From a virus (Duplodnaviria > Caudoviricetes), in the IMG/VR virus record IMGVR_UViG_3300010283_000005, positions 78,408-142,407 of that record: a DNA stretch of 64,000 nucleotides; one strand, written 5' to 3'. This document shows, piece by piece, positions 715-9,919 of the stretch. Below the pieces are notes generated by a model. That model was not told the DNA's origin. It made no database searches and saw nothing but the letters and a program-made list of their open reading frames with translations. A program made the translations under genes and the position numbers. Within the stretch, counting starts at the first letter, position 1. Each line of letters starts with the position of its first letter.

Positions 715-3700
715 ATGCCTAAGACTTATCCTGGAGCTCCTTATTACGATGATTATGATCCTACTAAGGAATATGTACAGCAATTAGCATTACCTGGTAA
801 AGCTGAGCAGGCTAGAGAGTTCACTCAGATTCAGAGTATGCAGCTGGACTTCTTAGGAAGATTAGGTGATTCCATTTATACTAGTGGTACTATTATTGAT
901 GGATGTACCTTAATCATCAGTGATAAGAAAGCCGTAATTTCATCAGGACGTATCTATCTTGACGGATTAGTGCGAATCGTTGATGGAGCTACTCTGACAA
1001 TCAATGGAGTAGGTTCTGAGATCATTGGTGCTAAAGTCGTTACTTCAATTGTCACTGAGACTGAGGATGATTCACTACGTGATCCTGCTCAGGGATATGA
1101 AAACTATGGTCAGGAAGGTGCTCATCGTCTTAAGGAGCATGTAGTCTTCACTGTCAATGATGCAGAAGCAGCAGCAGTCTATCGATTAGAAGAAGGCGAG
1201 CTAGTAGCTGATTCTACTACTGGTGAAGGCAATATGCTGACAGATACCTTAGCTCGTAGAACTTATGAGGAAAATGGTAACTACAAGATTCGAGGTCTCG
1301 AACTTCGTGATCGTAATGAAACTCGTGATGGTCAGATCCTACTGTCAATGACTGAGGGTAAAGCTTACATCATGGGTTATGAAGTACCTAAGGAGACTGC
1401 TACTACAGTCCGACTCAATTATAGCCAGACTGTACGTGAGGTTCTAAGTGAGCCTAAGACTTATCAGAGTGCTCAGACTAAGTATAAGCTGAGCAATCAG
1501 CCAGTCAAGGAATTCACTAATGTCACTGCTATTGTTCAGGTAACTGATAATATCACTAGAGGTAACATTCAGGGTGGTATTGATTATCTGCTCAATACTC
1601 CAGTCGATTCTATTGTGAGCATCAGTGGATATGAACAGGGTACTGATTATCAGTTGACTAATGATGGTGTCGACTGGTCTCTACCTGGTAAAGAACCTGC
1701 TACTGGTACTACTTATGCTGTTACCTACACATATAGTAGATCCATGAAACTCGGAGAAGATATCCAGATGACCGAGGAGAATGGAGAGAATTATCTTGAG
1801 TTCTTGCCTGATGGTAAGAAGCCTAATCAGGGTACTCGATTCTACATTAGCTACACTTTCTACTTAGCTAGAAAGGACTTGGTATGCCTATCTAAGAATG
1901 GTGAAATCGTAATTCTCGAAGGTAAGCCTAACGTAGCTCGATTAACTGAATCAGAGATCAATCAGGATGATAATAATCTAGCAATCGGTAGTGTACTTAT
2001 CATGCCTAACTCCAGCAATGTAGAGATTATCAACTTTGATACAGTCAGATTATCTCAGTCTGACCTCTACAATGTGCGTAAGCGAGTAGATGACCTTGAG
2101 TACAATCAGGCTATGACTGATCTTGATACTGAAGCTGAGGAAGGTGAGGATGCTACTGAGCTAAAGGGCATCTTGACTGATGGATTCTTAGGTCTGAGTA
2201 AATGCGATACAACTCATCCTGAGTTCGATTGCACTATTGACCTTGATAATAATGAGCTAACTCTACCTTTGATCACTTCAGTCAATGCAGTTAAGCCTAA
2301 CCTAGATACTAAAGAGACTAATGTCTCAGTTCTAGGTGATGTCATTATGGCTCCTTATAAGGAAGTCATTGCTAAACAGCAGATTTATGCGACCACTTCG
2401 ATGCTAGTCAATCCTTATGCTGTCTATAATCCAATGAGCATCGTGAGATTATCACCTTCAGTTGATAACTGGATCGATACTAGTAAGATCGTAGTCAATA
2501 AGAAACAGACAGTTACTACTACACTTCGTAGATGGTGGTATCATCGTGGTGAGTCCTGGGCAGAATCTGAGAAGGCTAAGTGGCAGCAGCTAGGATTTGC
2601 TGATGGTGGTCAGTCGCTACAGTGGGCTAATGGTACTGCAACTTCTACTACCGTCACCTCTGCAGTCGTCCTTGATGAAGCTATCATGTACATGAGACAG
2701 ATTAAGGTCACTGTCACTGGTAGAAACTTCATTCCTAATGTGGATAATATCAAGTGTACTTTCAATGATACAGTAGTTCCGCTGACTCCTACTGATGCTA
2801 GCCTCAAGGGTACTCAGACTGGTACTGTCAAGGCTAATGCTAAGGGTCAGGTTTCTGCTACATTCACCGTTCCGCCTAACGTACCTTGTGGTAGTGTTGA
2901 GGTTAAGCTATCTTATGCTAATGGTGAAGGTTCTGCAATATATCAGGCTCAAGGTAGAAAGCAGATCATCCAGGATACAGTCCTGACAACTACTACAGTT
3001 GCTAAGACTACTGACCCTCTAGCTCAGTCATTCTCCTTCGAGGATGATACAGTTCTGACTAAGGTTGGTCTGTACTTCGCTTCCAAGGATCCTAATAAAT
3101 CGATTATCGTTCAGATTCGTAGTGTTGATAATGGTTATCCTGGTACTACTCTGTATACTTCTAAGGAGTTACGAGCTGAGGATGTCAAGGTATCTGGTAA
3201 TTCTAGTGCAGTTACTGAAGTCTCTTTCGATGATCCTGTCTACTGCAAGGCAGATACTCAGTACGCTATCTGCATCCTATCTGACTCTAATCTGTACTCT
3301 ATGTTCATTGCTGAGTTAGGCAAGATGGATGTACTAAGAGGTAACCTAGTTACTAGTCAGCCTTACACTAATGGTGTGCTATTCTCCTCAAGTAACAACT
3401 TGACTTGGACTGCTCATCAGACCATGGACCTCAAGTTCGACTTGTATAAGGCTCAGTACACTGGTAAAGGTACCATCATCTTCAATGATGTATCTGATAT
3501 CCAGATCAATAGACTGCTACTTGCAGCTCAAGCTATTGACTACAAGAATGCAGGTATCGAATGGTTCTATAAGATCGGTACTAATGGTTCTTGGCTACCG
3601 ATTGAGACCTACGTAGATCGAGATATTTCTTCAGTATCAGCTATTAATCGAGTCTCCTTGAAGGCAGTACTTAATGTAGCTTACTCAACTTCTCCGATCA

Positions 3701-4050
3701 TCGCTAAGGATTGCATCAACTTAATCGGATTCCTCGAAAAGAGTAAAGGTACTTACATCTCTCGTCAGGTGACTATGAGTGATGCATTCACTCGAGCTAG
3801 AATCATCATGGACATCGCTAAGCCGTCAGGTACTGCAGTTGATGTCTACATTATGACTGATGCTGGCACTAGCTGGCGTAAGGTGACTGATACTCCTACT
3901 GTGACTCCGGTCGATGAGGAATTTAGTACTTACGAGTGGACAATCAGTGGTCTCAATTCTAAGAACTACAGAGTTAAGATCGCAATGGAGACTTCTAATC
4001 CGTTGATCAAGCCTAGAATCCGTAAGTTACGTAACATCCTGAAGTATTAA
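715..4050 (+). CDS. Large baseplate/adsorption-associated tail protein (DUF4815-like)
   Basis: 1111 aa with N-terminal PYYDDYD...QARE..Q.QS, LARRTYEE.GNY and C-terminal DPLAQSF...AHQ..DLKF motifs typical of myovirus DUF4815 proteins; strong RBS. Confidence 0.8.
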   Translation: MPKTYPGAPYYDDYDPTKEYVQQLALPGKAEQAREFTQIQSMQLDFLGRLGDSIYTSGTIIDGCTLIISDKKAVISSGRIYLDGLVRIVDGATLTINGVGSEIIGAKVVTSIVTETEDDSLRDPAQGYENYGQEGAHRLKEHVVFTVNDAEAAAVYRLEEGELVADSTTGEGNMLTDTLARRTYEENGNYKIRGLELRDRNETRDGQILLSMTEGKAYIMGYEVPKETATTVRLNYSQTVREVLSEPKTYQSAQTKYKLSNQPVKEFTNVTAIVQVTDNITRGNIQGGIDYLLNTPVDSIVSISGYEQGTDYQLTNDGVDWSLPGKEPATGTTYAVTYTYSRSMKLGEDIQMTEENGENYLEFLPDGKKPNQGTRFYISYTFYLARKDLVCLSKNGEIVILEGKPNVARLTESEINQDDNNLAIGSVLIMPNSSNVEIINFDTVRLSQSDLYNVRKRVDDLEYNQAMTDLDTEAEEGEDATELKGILTDGFLGLSKCDTTHPEFDCTIDLDNNELTLPLITSVNAVKPNLDTKETNVSVLGDVIMAPYKEVIAKQQIYATTSMLVNPYAVYNPMSIVRLSPSVDNWIDTSKIVVNKKQTVTTTLRRWWYHRGESWAESEKAKWQQLGFADGGQSLQWANGTATSTTVTSAVVLDEAIMYMRQIKVTVTGRNFIPNVDNIKCTFNDTVVPLTPTDASLKGTQTGTVKANAKGQVSATFTVPPNVPCGSVEVKLSYANGEGSAIYQAQGRKQIIQDTVLTTTTVAKTTDPLAQSFSFEDDTVLTKVGLYFASKDPNKSIIVQIRSVDNGYPGTTLYTSKELRAEDVKVSGNSSAVTEVSFDDPVYCKADTQYAICILSDSNLYSMFIAELGKMDVLRGNLVTSQPYTNGVLFSSSNNLTWTAHQTMDLKFDLYKAQYTGKGTIIFNDVSDIQINRLLLAAQAIDYKNAGIEWFYKIGTNGSWLPIETYVDRDISSVSAINRVSLKAVLNVAYSTSPIIAKDCINLIGFLEKSKGTYISRQVTMSDAFTRARIIMDIAKPSGTAVDVYIMTDAGTSWRKVTDTPTVTPVDEEFSTYEWTISGLNSKNYRVKIAMETSNPLIKPRIRKLRNILKY

Positions 4051-4286: not shown

Positions 4287-6275
4287 ATGGGTGACAATAG
4301 AGTAACTTCAACTATGGTCGAACTGAATATGAGTAGGGGTGACCAAGCTACTCTTAGAGACTTTCTAGATACTAGTAAGGTCCTACCTATAGGTGCATTC
4401 TGCAAGACTTCTGTAGCTCAAGCTATTACAGATGCTATCAACTACTTAACTGCTAAGCAAGATGGTGGTGTCTATGTTCCAGCTGATAAATCCAATAAGG
4501 CTACTCAGATTGTATCTTCAATTGACAAATCAGGTAAGTTGAAGATCAATTATATCACTTCTAATTACCGTTATCCTATCAATAAAGAAGCTCGTCCATT
4601 CACTGGAGATGCTTGGCAGATCGGTGACTTAGTATATAATACTGACACTGATGAGAATAAATGCCTAGGATGGGTATGTACAGAAGCAGGTATCCCTGGA
4701 TCGTGGGGAGTAATCGGATTTATTAGGAGCTGGGCTACTGAGCTTGAAGAAGTGACTGCATTGCCTGATCCAGGTCCAATGCAGATCAATCGTCAGGTAG
4801 TATGTGCTGGTAGAGCTTACATCTGCAAGCTAGTAGATGGTGAGTACAACTGGTACTGGATGGACTATGCTTATGGTAATAGCAGTCAGCATCCTACTAC
4901 TGACCTACGAGTAGGACTCCCTTACTACAATATACAGACAGGCTTACCTGAGTGGTGGAATGGTTCAGAATGGGTAGCAGTAGCTAAGGCTAACCATACT
5001 CATGAAGACCTAGGTGCATCAGATACTCCTAAATATCTGACTAAGTCAGTAGAGAATACTAATGATAAGCTGATCTATCTACCTAATTCTCGAGAAGGAT
5101 TCCTGTCAGTCAATTTAATCGGTAAACCTGGCATGGTAGCTAGTGAACTGAGTATCTCTTCACTAGAGAATCAGGCTAAGTTTGATGAATTAGTCAAACT
5201 CGATGATACTAATTCTAGTTATCAAGTTGATGGTGATACTCTGACCTTAGTTAAGAGTACTGACTCAACTGCTCAGATTCAAGTAGCTAAGATTCCTATC
5301 CGAGTCAAAGCAGGAGCTCAGTATCGATGCTACTATGATCTCGAGACTACTAATGAAGCTAAAATCATCGTAGGTATGAAGAAGACTGGAATCGTAGCTT
5401 CATTCAAACCTGATGGTAGTGTCGAGTGCAACTTTGATGGTACTGAAGATACTGATGCTGAGCTAGTCTTCATGTTTGATCTTAATACTAAGATCAATAG
5501 CATTGCTTACATAAAGAATTTCTTCTTAGTAGACATCGCTAATAAATCAGTTGACTTCGTACTTGAAGATTACATCCCAGGTCAAGAACTCAGATGCGTT
5601 AGGAATTATGCAGCTGATGAGCTTATTGATAATGTCTTCTATAAGAGAGTAGTCGACCTTAAGCTGTATACTTATGGTGATGAGGTAGAGTTCGCAAACC
5701 AAGGTACATTTGCTAATGATGGATATTTAGTTATCCTTCAGAATCATAAGCATTCTTACTTAGGTAGATCAATGTATGTGCCTAAGGATGATCAAACTGC
5801 ATCTGCAATTAAGATCAGCGGATTCAGTACTGAGGCTTATGATAAGGTACGTTTAGGTAGTACTGATGGACTCAAGATCGGAATCAGTTCTGAAGGTATG
5901 GTAGCTTACAACATTCCTAATAGTTTAGTAGGTAATTATTCTGTAACCTATTACTTGAAGTACTTAGCTGAGAAGATCAATACAGCTTCTATAATTCCAT
6001 TAGCAGAACCAGTAGTTAGTGAGTTAGTAATGTATCCAGCTCCTATTAGATGCCATACTCGTGGTGTCTTATTACTGAGTAAGTTTAATGTGAACTTAGA
6101 TATCAAGTATCCTGCTAATGCTGCTGCAGTGACTGAGATGACTGCTGATATCTTGCAGAAGGTTGCTAATCAGAGAATCAAGTACAATGAAGCTCCTCTA
6201 AGCTGGTCTGATAAGATCACTTGGGGTACAGCTGCAAAAAATAATAAGAATTGGAGAGGTGAGAAGAATGCCTAA
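4287..6275 (+). CDS. Tail fibre/spike-like structural protein
   Basis: GDAWQIGDLVYN...GWVCTEAGIPGSW and PEWWNGSEWV motifs seen in tail fibre modules; position in the tail operon. Confidence 0.6.
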   Translation: MGDNRVTSTMVELNMSRGDQATLRDFLDTSKVLPIGAFCKTSVAQAITDAINYLTAKQDGGVYVPADKSNKATQIVSSIDKSGKLKINYITSNYRYPINKEARPFTGDAWQIGDLVYNTDTDENKCLGWVCTEAGIPGSWGVIGFIRSWATELEEVTALPDPGPMQINRQVVCAGRAYICKLVDGEYNWYWMDYAYGNSSQHPTTDLRVGLPYYNIQTGLPEWWNGSEWVAVAKANHTHEDLGASDTPKYLTKSVENTNDKLIYLPNSREGFLSVNLIGKPGMVASELSISSLENQAKFDELVKLDDTNSSYQVDGDTLTLVKSTDSTAQIQVAKIPIRVKAGAQYRCYYDLETTNEAKIIVGMKKTGIVASFKPDGSVECNFDGTEDTDAELVFMFDLNTKINSIAYIKNFFLVDIANKSVDFVLEDYIPGQELRCVRNYAADELIDNVFYKRVVDLKLYTYGDEVEFANQGTFANDGYLVILQNHKHSYLGRSMYVPKDDQTASAIKISGFSTEAYDKVRLGSTDGLKIGISSEGMVAYNIPNSLVGNYSVTYYLKYLAEKINTASIIPLAEPVVSELVMYPAPIRCHTRGVLLLSKFNVNLDIKYPANAAAVTEMTADILQKVANQRIKYNEAPLSWSDKITWGTAAKNNKNWRGEKNA

Positions 6276-7641
6276 AGTTAATTTTGACTACATTGGTAGT
6301 AATGAACAATTAAGTCCTGCCAAGGTCAACGCTAACTTCCAGACACTAGAGAATATGATTAACTCTGGTGAGCTAAGTGGCGGTGGCGGAGGTGGTACTG
6401 TCACGGGTTCTGAGTATGGAGTTGAATGGGATATCACTAATAAAAGATTCACTAGACTGAATAATGCATTAGGATTGTCTGCTACGCTCGGATCCAATGG
6501 CATTGTCAGCTCAGATTTTGATAATGTCTACCCTTGGTCGGAGATGAGACGATGCAATCTAAGTGATGACGGAGTAGTCACTGCCTACTACGGAGACTCG
6601 AATTTCTCAGAGACTGGATCTAATGGTCAGGTCATGGTCGAGATTCCTAAGTTCTATTATAAGACAATTCCAGTAGCCTACACAGTGAGCAATGGAGATG
6701 TAGTTCCTACTAAAGTACAGTTCTACATATCTGATGCTAAACTGGATGGATACTCTCTTCATCCAGCATTTATCCGAGATAATGTCATCCTTGATTATAT
6801 CTACCTTGGAGCGTATGAAGCATCTGTCTACGATGTATCAGCTGCTAGGTATGTAGCTGACTTCGGATTCGATGGTGCTAATGATATCCTCGGATCAGTC
6901 AAAGGTCTCAAGCCAGTAAGTGGAAAGACTTCTACTTTCACTAGAGCAATTGCTCGTAATATGGCTCGTAGACGTGGTGCTGGATGGGAACAGCAGGATT
7001 TCTTATCCACTAGTGCAGTTCAGCTCATGATGTTGATAGAATTCGCATCATTCGATAGTCAGACTGATATTGGTGCAGGTGTCTCTAATAAGACTGATGA
7101 TGGATCCAGTAACATGGCTGAAAATACTGGATACACCTCTGAATTAGGTAATAAATCTGGTAATGCTGCTACTTCTAGTAGCTCTTATAGAGCAGTTACT
7201 TATCGTGGTATTGAGAACCTATGGGGCAATATTTGGGTATGGATCGATGGCATCAATATCCAGAACAGTAGCCTTGGGTATCCTTGGATTGCTGATCATG
7301 GATTCGCTGATGATATCATGACTGAACCATATCATCGGATCAATGGTAAGATTCCTGCATCTGATGGATACATCGATAAGCTTATTTATGATGTATCCAA
7401 TGACTTTGCAATGCTACCTTCTTCAGCTGGTGGTGCATCAAATACTCCTGTCAACAGCTATATGTGGCAGAGAGTAGCATCTACTTCAATGATGGTGGCT
7501 GGGCTTGGTGGTAGCTGGCTTTATGGCTCTGCTTGTGGTGGCTGGGGCTGGGGTCTGGCTTATGCCTCTTCTTATTCTGGTCGGGATATCGGGGCTCGGC
7601 TTGGATTCTACAAGAAGACGACTCATGCTCAAGCTGCGTAA
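6268..7641 (+). CDS. DGR target: receptor-binding/tail fibre protein with C-terminal C-type-lectin-fold variable domain
   Basis: YRGIENLWGNIWVWIDG and GGSW..GS.CG...S...IGARL CLec motifs; the 3' end contains the VR. Probable start is ATG 6268 after GGAGAGG. Confidence 0.9.
   Translation: MPKVNFDYIGSNEQLSPAKVNANFQTLENMINSGELSGGGGGGTVTGSEYGVEWDITNKRFTRLNNALGLSATLGSNGIVSSDFDNVYPWSEMRRCNLSDDGVVTAYYGDSNFSETGSNGQVMVEIPKFYYKTIPVAYTVSNGDVVPTKVQFYISDAKLDGYSLHPAFIRDNVILDYIYLGAYEASVYDVSAARYVADFGFDGANDILGSVKGLKPVSGKTSTFTRAIARNMARRRGAGWEQQDFLSTSAVQLMMLIEFASFDSQTDIGAGVSNKTDDGSSNMAENTGYTSELGNKSGNAATSSSSYRAVTYRGIENLWGNIWVWIDGINIQNSSLGYPWIADHGFADDIMTEPYHRINGKIPASDGYIDKLIYDVSNDFAMLPSSAGGASNTPVNSYMWQRVASTSMMVAGLGGSWLYGSACGGWGWGLAYASSYSGRDIGARLGFYKKTTHAQAA
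7495..7609 (+). repeat. DGR variable repeat (VR)
   Basis: 115-nt gapless alignment to 7818-7932 with 26 mismatches, 25 of them at TR adenines. Confidence 0.97.
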
Positions 7642-7645
7642 TCGG

Positions 7646-7664
7646 TGCTAATTAAAAATTAGCA
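7646..7664 (+). other. Hairpin downstream of VR (candidate DGR target-recognition hairpin)
   Basis: TGCTAATT-AAA-AATTAGCA is a perfect 8-bp inverted repeat just after the target stop codon. Confidence 0.55.
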
Positions 7665-7680
7665 TCTTTCCTATAAATTG

Positions 7681-8020
7681 TAGGTTATATCCTATGAGTG
7701 ACCGATGGTACTAACCATAATTGATCGCAGGTGATTTGATCACTTGTTCCATGAACCTAGAACTGCTCAGTCGCATCTATGTAATTTATGGGAGGGAATC
7801 CCTCCCATAAATTTCAAGTGGCTAAACTTGGTGGTAACTGGAATAATGGCTCTAATTGTGGTAGCTGGTACTGGAATCTGAATAATACCTCTTCTAATTC
7901 TAATCGGAATATCGGAGCTCAGCTTAAATTCTTACTATAATATTGGATATGGTGTAGGATATGACCTGACCTCTCGGTCGAACATAAAAATAGCAGAACT
8001 TTAATCTGTGTTAGTAGGTC
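7681..8020 (+). ncRNA. Structured DGR template RNA surrounding TR
   Basis: 7681-7694 pairs with 7955-7968 (14 bp, 2 G-U). There is a perfect 15-bp inverted repeat at 7783-7813 and hairpins at 7728-7746 and 7968-7979. Boundaries are approximate. Confidence 0.6.
7818..7932 (+). repeat. DGR template repeat (TR)
   Basis: Non-coding AAT/AAC-rich copy of VR located between the target gene and the RT. Confidence 0.97.
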
Positions 8021-8118
8021 CTTCATTTTATGATTTATATTATACATTGATGTGGCTCGGACGCTCAGAACTGCGTAAGAATCCAATAAATAAATACAAA
8101 GGAGGATAACCTCGAGGT

Positions 8119-9216
8119 ATGAAACGCATCGGGAATCTATACGATGAAGTATGTAGTATCGAGAACCTGCGTGAAGCACATCAGCGTGCACGTAAAGGTA
8201 AAGGATGGTACGCTGAGGTAATTGCTGTCGATAATGACTTGGATAATAAACTTGAAGAATTGTCCAAGATGATGAAAGAACACCGCTACCGTACTAGTGA
8301 GTATACGATCTTTAAGAAGAAGGAAGGTAAGAAAGTCAGAGAAATCTGTAAACTTCCTTATTATCCTGATCGAATCGCTCAATGGGCAGTAATGCTCGTA
8401 ATTGAGAAGTATCTCACTAAGAATCTGATTATTGATACATACTCAGCAATCAAGGGTAGAGGAATTCATAAAGGTCTCAAGAAGATCAAAGAATGCATAC
8501 TTAATGATGCTGAAGGGACTAAGTACTGCTTAAAGATGGATGTTCATCATTACTACGCAAGTATTAATCATGATATCCTCAAAGCTACTTTCGCTAGATT
8601 ATTTAAAGATCCAGACTTATTATGGCTGATCGGAGAGATTATCGATTCTACTCCGGGAGATACTGGTATTCCAATCGGTAATTATTTATCGCAATGGAGT
8701 GGCAATATCTACTTGAGTAGGCTAGATCACTGGCTGAAAGAAGTTAAGCATGTCAAGTATTACTTCCGATACATGGATGACATGATCATCCTATGTGATA
8801 GTAAAGAAACCTTGCATCAACTGAGAAAAGATATCTCTGAGTACTTAGAGACTAATCTTAAACTGAAACTTAAATCTAACTGGCAAGTCTTCCCTACTTT
8901 AGTAAGAGGAATTGACTTCTTAGGATACAGATTCTTCCGTGATTATGTATTACTGAGACAATCTATCGCTGATAAGTTCAAATCTACTATGCTTAAGATT
9001 AAGCATAAGTTAGTTACTGGAAAGTCCATCACTTACCATGACTTCTGCTCAGCTAATAGCTATAAGGGATGGCTAAAGCACTGTGATTCATGGCGAATAA
9101 GACTTAAGTATATAGTACCTATTCAACCTAGTCTAGATGACTATTATAGAAAGGAGATCAAGAATCATGGAACCAAAACGAATCGATTATCAGGTCCAGT
9201 CTACTGTCAAGCCTGA
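8119..9216 (+). CDS. DGR reverse transcriptase
   Basis: LKMDVHHYY, GIPIGNYLSQ (DGR-type IGxxxSQ), YFRYMDD and GIDFLGY motifs; adjacent to TR. Confidence 0.95.
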   Translation: MKRIGNLYDEVCSIENLREAHQRARKGKGWYAEVIAVDNDLDNKLEELSKMMKEHRYRTSEYTIFKKKEGKKVREICKLPYYPDRIAQWAVMLVIEKYLTKNLIIDTYSAIKGRGIHKGLKKIKECILNDAEGTKYCLKMDVHHYYASINHDILKATFARLFKDPDLLWLIGEIIDSTPGDTGIPIGNYLSQWSGNIYLSRLDHWLKEVKHVKYYFRYMDDMIILCDSKETLHQLRKDISEYLETNLKLKLKSNWQVFPTLVRGIDFLGYRFFRDYVLLRQSIADKFKSTMLKIKHKLVTGKSITYHDFCSANSYKGWLKHCDSWRIRLKYIVPIQPSLDDYYRKEIKNHGTKTNRLSGPVYCQA

Positions 9217-9919
9217 TGCTATTGCTATGACTGACTTCGAAGTCTTTATCAGAACTAACATCTCTGCTAAAGAAGTAGAAGATGAGATGTCCTCTAGTAG
9301 CAAGAAGAAATCTACTCATACGATGTATATCTATACTGAAATTGTATATGATAAGAACGAGTACTTCACTAAGCTAGCAGAATCTACTGATCTACCAGTA
9401 GTGGTCGATCGAGCTGCTATGTCAGATGAAGACCTAATTGCTTACCTCAAGAATTACTTCAATCAGAAGTGCGAAGATGCACTAGCAGTTGGTATTGAAG
9501 TTGATGTACCTGACTTAGGTAGAAAAAACTTCAGCTGCAAGCTAGAAGATCAGGTCAATATCGAAGCTATAGCTAAGGGCATCACTGCTGATACTACTGA
9601 GGTTTATTATCACTCCAATGGTGATAAATGCCGTCTGTATGATGTAGCTACCTTTGCAGAGATCACTGGTAAGGTGTTCGTATGCAAGTACCAGCAGACT
9701 GCATACTGTAATCTACTCAAATCCTATGTAGAGGGTGAAGCTACTGCGGATGAGCGTAGAACTATCGAGTATGGAGATGTACCTTCTGAGGAGTTCAGCA
9801 ATGAGCTATCTAAGATCGTACTGCAAGGAGTTACTTCTACTGCAGCTAGCTTCCTTACTCCAAATGAGACTTTCAACAAAGTCATCGAGTCACTAGTTTC
9901 TCAGTTAACTAGCAATTAA
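9167..9919 (+). CDS. Tail fibre-associated/assembly protein (DUF4376-like C-terminus)
   Basis: Probable ATG 9167 after AAGGAG; FSCKLEDQVNI...YHSNGDKCRLY pattern. Not Avd-like in size or motifs. Confidence 0.5.
   Translation: MEPKRIDYQVQSTVKPDAIAMTDFEVFIRTNISAKEVEDEMSSSSKKKSTHTMYIYTEIVYDKNEYFTKLAESTDLPVVVDRAAMSDEDLIAYLKNYFNQKCEDALAVGIEVDVPDLGRKNFSCKLEDQVNIEAIAKGITADTTEVYYHSNGDKCRLYDVATFAEITGKVFVCKYQQTAYCNLLKSYVEGEATADERRTIEYGDVPSEEFSNELSKIVLQGVTSTAASFLTPNETFNKVIESLVSQLTSN

Follow-up and report, generated by a model that had tools for sequence, protein, structure and literature searches.

Does the locus at positions 6268–9216 of the viral DNA studied here hold a working diversity-generating retroelement (DGR), and what sets the strong bias towards guanine in its variable repeat? 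The analysed stretch, called the window below, has 64,000 nucleotides and corresponds to bases 78,408–142,407 of the 142,407-bp IMG/VR record IMGVR_UViG_3300010283_000005. This record has direct terminal repeats and a completeness rating of 100%, and a DNA similarity search gave no match among 50,697 phage records. An earlier interpretation of the window made from the letters alone (the sequence-only reading) had proposed an active DGR that diversifies a tail receptor-binding protein of a large lytic-type phage. We find that this 142-kb gut-type phage carries a genuine DGR of the known accessory-free class, with a predicted lectin-fold tail protein as its target. The element is very likely functional; it has no Avd protein, and its parts follow each other on one strand in the order target gene with variable repeat (VR), template repeat (TR) and reverse transcriptase (RT) gene (Table 1).

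The repeat pair supports this assignment. VR and TR form a gapless alignment of 115 nt at an offset of 323, and 25 of the 32 TR adenines are altered in VR (18 A>G, 4 A>T and 3 A>C). The sole mismatch outside adenine is a T>G change at 7546/7869, where TR has TAC and VR has GGC. All numbers given by the sequence-only reading were reproduced. The whole genome (142,407 bp, both strands) was also scanned with TR, scoring only its 83 non-adenine positions. TR itself shows 0/83 mismatches, VR shows 1/83 and the next best site 41/83, so the TR/VR match is not due to chance. A search for additional VRs had been suggested as a check, and the scan returned VR alone; no second VR for this TR is present in the genome on either strand. 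Read in the frame of the target, TR has 29 of its 32 adenines at codon position 1 or 2, and the ten AAY codons (Y is C or T) contain 20 of the 32. The TR therefore has the AAY-rich design, in which these codons are unable to yield stops; two AAA codons could yield stop codons. The 3′ end of VR contains a GC-rich block of 14 nt that may act as the initiation of mutagenic homing (IMH) site, an element with a GC-rich start that sets the 3′ boundary of mutagenesis in DGRs. The copy of this block in TR (7914–7927, GGAGCTCAGCTTAA), the candidate IMH*, differs from it by four A>G changes alone, and the TR–VR homology stops 5 nt further on. The residues encoded by the VR block, G442, R444 and G446, are constant in 13/13 variants of the population described below, and the homologous blocks of relatives are constant among VRs that use one TR.

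RTs of the DGR type are recognized by an [LIV]GxxxSQ motif and a YxDD motif. The window RT, an open reading frame (ORF) matching RVT_1 (E = 2e-17) and phrog_1423 (E = 4e-125), has IGNYLSQ at residues 186–192 (nt 8674–8694) and YMDD at residues 218–221 (nt 8770–8781); the intact RT reported earlier was thus found with both motifs in place. The search found 141 relatives of this RT in IMG/VR; among the examined ones, a TR/VR pair lies directly upstream in nearly every case. The pairs are clean and the layout is alike in 73 related IMG/VR loci, and pairs were detected in Psychrobacillus phage Perkons as well. One relative, L011, has a degraded pair (3410–3512 and 3681–3783) with 8 mismatches at adenines and 4 elsewhere and with the apparent roles of TR and VR swapped; it is possibly a decaying DGR. 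Avd (PF05635) was not found in the whole 142-kb genome, nor in the records of five relatives, including two with a completeness of 94% or more. About 74% of DGRs possess Avd, so the protein is not strictly defining.

The target matches phrog_5302 'tail protein' (E = 3.5e-103) and gave no match in Pfam, NCBIfam or PDB sequence searches. The target was modelled with AlphaFold2 from 24 homologues at related loci, and the model reached a pTM of 0.80 and a mean pLDDT of 73. In a Foldseek search with this model, TaqVP (5vf4) is the top match (E = 1e-8), followed by five Mtd variants of Bordetella phage BPP-1 (1yu0–1yu4), and further matches include formylglycine-generating enzymes (FGE) and TvpA. 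The model thus assigns to the C-terminus the C-type-lectin fold that is typical of DGR targets. The proposed receptor-binding role agrees with the TaqVP/Mtd-like fold, the PHROG annotation and the place of the gene in the tail module, and the protein would bind a receptor on the host. Homologues of the target at 62–78% identity (P0004–P0013) lie on contigs of 140–142 kb; on this basis, a phage family of about 140–142 kb shares the diversified tail protein.

Variation among close homologues bears on activity. The target belongs to a protein cluster of 93 sequences at ≥90% identity, and we aligned 13 full-length members, which are 91–96% identical, at the protein level. The mean column entropy is 0.80 bit within VR and 0.082 bit outside VR. 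All variable VR columns correspond to TR codons that contain adenine, namely AAA412, AAC416, nine AAT codons, TAC427, ACC433 and ATC441, and every VR column with an adenine-free TR codon is constant in 13/13 members. Aspartate, tyrosine, serine, asparagine and glycine are all common in the hypervariable columns, and glycine is not dominant. At residue 427, the T>G change is private to the window genome, and the other members have cysteine, phenylalanine or tyrosine. Three substituted positions, S425G, Q444R and K446G, are constant in the population of 13. The sequence-only reading had named an absence of variation, or its even spread across all bases, as the outcome that would mark an inactive element. 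The alignment gave variation at adenine codons only, in assemblies rather than reads, and this pattern speaks for activity of the DGR in this lineage.

The region around TR also has the features of a DGR RNA. A helix of 16 bp, with G–U pairs counted, connects a segment upstream of TR with one downstream, and a small stem-loop and an A-rich run stand directly after its 3′ arm. This arrangement is common to most relatives, including Perkons and the other DGR of the genome, with at least ten different arm sequences. RNAduplex z-scores were too permissive for assessing the enclosing helix, and an anchored cross-locus comparison was used instead, in which the upstream flank of each of 19 loci was paired with the segment before the stem-loop of its own locus or of mismatched loci. 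The own flanks pair over at least 9 bp in 15/19 loci (mean of 10.6 bp), compared with a mean of 6.0 bp for mismatched loci; the TR-enclosing helix covaries among loci. In the BPP-1 DGR, the 'cPRT Stop' consists of a stem-loop and adenosines with an upstream–downstream duplex, and it was described in DGRs that possess Avd (Handa et al., bioRxiv 10.1101/2023.10.23.563531). The helix, stem-loop and A-run match this element. The stem-loop and A-run of the window also align with the 5′ part of the Rfam family RT-17 (RF03020), which the spacers of seven relatives (L004, L005, L036, L039, L042, L048 and L057) match over the threshold at 41–57 bits. Since the 5′ stem-loop and A-run of RT-17 follow the TR-enclosing helix, RT-17 probably belongs to the DGR RNA in Avd-less elements, and the window copy may work in the same way, although it lies below the membership score. 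A primer–template duplex between the conserved TAGTA motif and the stretch immediately 3′ of TR was considered; it fits the window, is inconsistent in relatives and was dropped. Neither an equivalent of the hairpin at 7644–7666 nor a conserved cruciform after VR is kept in the relatives, so a homing role for this hairpin is not supported, and the hairpin at 7783–7813 is likewise not conserved in them.

In the mechanism that we propose, a transcript from about 7680 to beyond 8020 would fold such that the 16-bp helix encloses TR and is followed by the stem-loop and the A-run. The RT would copy TR into complementary DNA (cDNA), presumably from a cis-primed start, faithfully at C, G and U and with misreading of A. 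The cDNA would replace VR at the 3′ end of the lectin-fold tail protein gene, and this replacement would alter up to 14 surface codons and hence binding by the tail tip. Misreading would mainly place dC opposite A, giving A>G, and would be near-obligatory before G or C; real diversity, with G, T, C or retained A, would come only from AAY and a few other codons.

The G share of the window substitutions is 18/25 (72%), which departs from an even spectrum (binomial p = 9e-5). We compared it with a near clade, whose RTs are at least 46% identical to the window RT (53 distinct pairs, that is, 52 relatives and the window), and with a distant clade, whose RTs are 37–42% identical (20 pairs). In the near clade, G makes up 71% of the substitutions, T 16% and C 13%, with a mean of 65% of adenines altered; the distant clade has 42% G, 31% T and 27% C. 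The sequence-only reading had singled out high saturation together with strong G skew. The saturation of 78% is indeed at the upper edge of the clade, reached by 4% of relatives, whereas the G share is just the clade average. Within the window, the 20 adenines of AAY codons account for 8 changes to G, 4 to T and 3 to C, and the 12 other adenines include 10 altered ones, 10/10 to G. Five of the 18 A>G changes lie at positions that are constant in the population, and four of these form the GC-rich IMH-like block at 7591–7604.

The same division is found across the clade and follows the 3′ neighbour. Adenines before G (n = 281) are read as G in VR in 94% of cases and those before C (n = 209) in 78%, compared with about one third of those before A or T (n = 1,438), of which 35–47% are retained as A. 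Internal non-AAY adenines before G or C are G in 271/300 cases, and in relatives with 6–10 VRs per one TR such positions are constantly G next to variable AAY codons. At four-fold degenerate third positions (n = 84) we counted 79 G, 5 A, 0 T and 0 C, and at those located 5′ of the last AAY codon (n = 42) 38 G, 4 A, 0 T and 0 C. The cDNA made by the BPP-1 RT (bRT) in E. coli agrees in direction: dC misincorporation (A>G) leads in most contexts, the 3′ neighbour is the strongest influence and the spectrum is broader in AAC (Unlu et al., bioRxiv 10.1101/2025.08.18.670894). We therefore favour, as the simplest explanation, an RT bias that depends on context and is stronger in this clade, with the RT itself as its probable cause. 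A more specific proposal, which we hold as doubtful but possible, is that the RT of the Avd-less RT-17-type clade nearly always reads adenine as G when G or C follows on the 3′ side of the template, with true randomization confined to AAT and AAA. Under this proposal, some TR adenines could be 'silent' and stand for a constant G, and the RT would be a context-programmed two-mode mutator. If true, this would be a behaviour not described for natural DGRs; the near-obligatory A>G change before G or C may be the one aspect that is new.

These readings must be weighed against three alternatives and against several points in the data. The cassette could be a fossil that formerly diversified the tail protein and is now dead, with VR frozen; the non-adenine mismatch at 7546, the absence of an Avd homologue from the genome search and the absence of VR/TR variants from the IMG/VR and JGI metagenome scans would all fit. 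However, 82 of 83 non-adenine positions are the same in TR and VR, the RT reading frame is open and keeps the catalytic motifs, and the RNA module is intact. The T>G change is confined to this genome, Avd was not found across the clade (two near-complete relatives included), as in 29% of catalogued DGRs, and the 91–96% identical proteins from other assemblies differ exactly at adenine codons. We therefore regard a dead cassette as highly improbable. Some points do weigh against our interpretation of a functional element with an RT-driven spectrum. The TR of the other 12 cluster members is assumed to be the same as the window TR, and TR patterns with N at the adenines gave no IMG/VR or JGI metagenome match, hence no variants at the DNA level. 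The TR–VR homology ends with the A-mutated region, and a classical IMH tail is absent. The window spacer scores 20.5 bits against RF03020, under the gathering score of 40.4. Finally, the pooled sites of the relatives are in part homologous and therefore do not count as independent, and the always-G positions could stem from selection, which might also act to keep a functional IMH, or from G·T-biased heteroduplex repair rather than from RT chemistry.

These last two sources are the remaining alternatives, and both concern the skew. Selection on the protein for glycine, arginine and alanine in loops could act on an unbiased A>N spectrum. In its favour, R444 is constant throughout the family and G425 and G446 are constant in the population, each of which needs G at a TR adenine, and selection purged missense changes from the reporter of Unlu et al. 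(bioRxiv 10.1101/2025.08.18.670894). The skew is nevertheless present at synonymous sites and is thus not mainly glycine selection; it also tracks the 3′ neighbour and not the codon, and the hypervariable columns are not dominated by glycine. In the distant RT clade, whose VRs are of a similar lectin type, the G share is only 42%, as given above. The sequence-only reading had offered an RT property or selection for Gly-rich loops as the source of the G bias, and of these a property of the RT clade is favoured, while selection as the main cause is judged unlikely. Alternatively, the constant positions with A in TR and G in VR would not be made by the RT at all and would reflect fixed differences of the IMH/IMH* type or G·T-biased repair of the cDNA–target heteroduplex. 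Four such positions fall in the GC-rich block at the VR 3′ end, which resembles the GC-rich start of the IMH in BPP-1, and they are constant among VRs with one common TR. Against it, the internal positions between hypervariable codons behave likewise and must share the same cDNA with those codons, and the cassette has no linked repair gene. We consider this explanation improbable, though it has some room.

The setting of the cassette agrees with a diversified tail protein. A DUF4815 protein and a weak tail-fibre match lie 5′ of the target gene, with baseplate-wedge genes and P2-I-like tail genes farther upstream, and an endolysin and a holin lie downstream. As the endolysin has glucosaminidase, CHAP and CW_7 repeat domains, its make-up points to a Gram-positive host. 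Genes for topoisomerase II, helicases, DNA polymerase, ligase and anaerobic ribonucleotide reductase are found elsewhere in the window. The genome search turned up neither a tyrosine integrase nor a convincing serine recombinase, so the description as a large lytic-type phage is reasonable, and the full set of replication genes is consistent with it. Between tail genes, an ORF at 2–553 has two NUMOD3 motifs, a DNA-binding module of homing endonucleases.

The genome contains a second DGR cassette at 72,278–74,440 (L086:8279–10442), about 5.4 kb before the window start. Its VR (72,278–72,386; L086:8279–8387) and TR (72,937–73,045; L086:8938–9046) differ by 20 mismatches at adenine (15 G, 3 T and 2 C) and none elsewhere. 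Its RT of 388 aa is 23% identical to the window RT, and its target has 2005 aa and a DUF6273 end. An acidic ORF of 161 aa (pI 5.7, no Pfam match) lies between this target and TR, the usual place of avd. Two tail proteins of this phage are therefore diversified, each by its own RT, and the two RTs are unrelated. Each RT gene is overlapped by a following ORF of about 250 aa (window 9137–9919 and L086:10433–11182), and the two ORFs are 23% identical (E = 5e-8). The one behind the second RT has a borderline DUF4376 match and a match to a tail-fibre PHROG. A role of the 9137–9919 ORF as a DGR accessory gene was rejected, since its place after the RT is not kept in relatives and its paralogue matches the tail-fibre PHROG.

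Table 1. Features of the DGR locus in window coordinates.
Feature	Position	Strand	Remarks
Target gene	6268..7641	+	457 aa, tail-module protein; predicted C-type-lectin-fold C-terminus with VR
Variable repeat (VR)	7495..7609	+	Residues 410–448 of the 457-aa target
GC-rich 14-nt block, VR 3′ end	7591..7604	+	GGGGCTCGGCTTGG; candidate IMH
Hairpin	7644..7666	+	Terminator-like, possibly target-site cruciform; 3 nt past target stop codon
5′ arm of TR-enclosing long-range helix	7681..7696	+
Hairpin directly 5′ of TR	7783..7813	+	Perfect, 14 bp
Template repeat (TR)	7818..7932	+	32 adenines, 10 AAY codons in VR frame
3′ arm of TR-enclosing helix	7953..7968	+
TR-to-RT spacer RNA	7963..8099	+	Weak match to Rfam RF03020 (RT-17)
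Small stem-loop and A-rich run	7968..7993	+	GAACATAAAAATAG; stem-loop (GACC-TCTC-GGTC) 7968–7979, A-run 7980–7993
Conserved spacer motif	8006–8018	+	CTGTGTTAGTAGG; recurs in 14 relatives, 65–140 nt past TR
DGR reverse transcriptase	8119..9216	+	365 aa, open ORF
ORF overlapping RT stop	9137–9919		About 250 aa; distantly paralogous to the ORF behind the second RT gene of the genome

For this phage, the results identify a fast-adapting tail protein and pinpoint its changing residues, 14 columns within residues 412–441. More generally, the natural TR/VR pairs of one RT clade provide a context-resolved spectrum with the same direction as the cDNA data of the Bordetella enzyme, which bears on the real diversity output of DGRs and on their use as programmable mutators. 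An RNA module like the cPRT Stop also occurs in an Avd-less clade.

Finally, we compared the element with known systems. By gene order it is likened to architecture A1, a TR–RT core without an accessory gene, in which target, TR and RT likewise lie on one strand; among 372 surveyed DGRs, 29% have this architecture, and avd is wholly missing from one lineage of RTs (Wu et al. 2018, PMC5758913). The BPP-1 DGR (mtd-avd-TR-brt) shares the adenine-specific transfer from TR to VR, the TR directly upstream of the RT, the location of VR at the C-terminal end of a tail protein with a lectin fold, with the target model matching Mtd, and the dominance of dC misincorporation in cells shown by the bRT data. 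However, the window element has no Avd, uses AAT rather than AAC codons and has a distantly related RT; its TR–VR homology ends at the mutated region, and its adenines before C give A>G, whereas bRT gives more A>C there. TaqVP of Thermus aquaticus (PDB 5vf4) is the best structural match of the target model (TM 0.43–0.50), although the sequence identity is 13–15% and TaqVP is a bacterial protein and not a phage tail component. The RT-17 RNA (RF03020) has the same position in the TR-to-RT spacer, the same strand and the same 5′ stem-loop and A-run; the window copy differs in its score (20.5 versus 40.4 bits) and in an insertion of 74 nt, compared with 32 nt in the RT-17 model. The closest RT of a cultured phage, at 46.6% identity, is that of Perkons (MT325768, ORF176-ORF175). 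Perkons has been described as a temperate phage that carries several integrases, whereas no integrase was found in our genome, and the Perkons target is shorter (354 aa). Its DGR (L084:4555–7077) has the same order, with a TR at 5701–5837 and a VR at 5479–5615 that differ by 32 mismatches at adenine (24 to G) and 0 elsewhere, and it shares the TR-enclosing helix, stem-loop and A-run in a genome of similar size (137 kb). The words reverse transcriptase and DGR are absent from the 2026 Perkons paper (PMC13245101). This cultured relative, with an unreported DGR of the same clade, could thus serve as a laboratory model.

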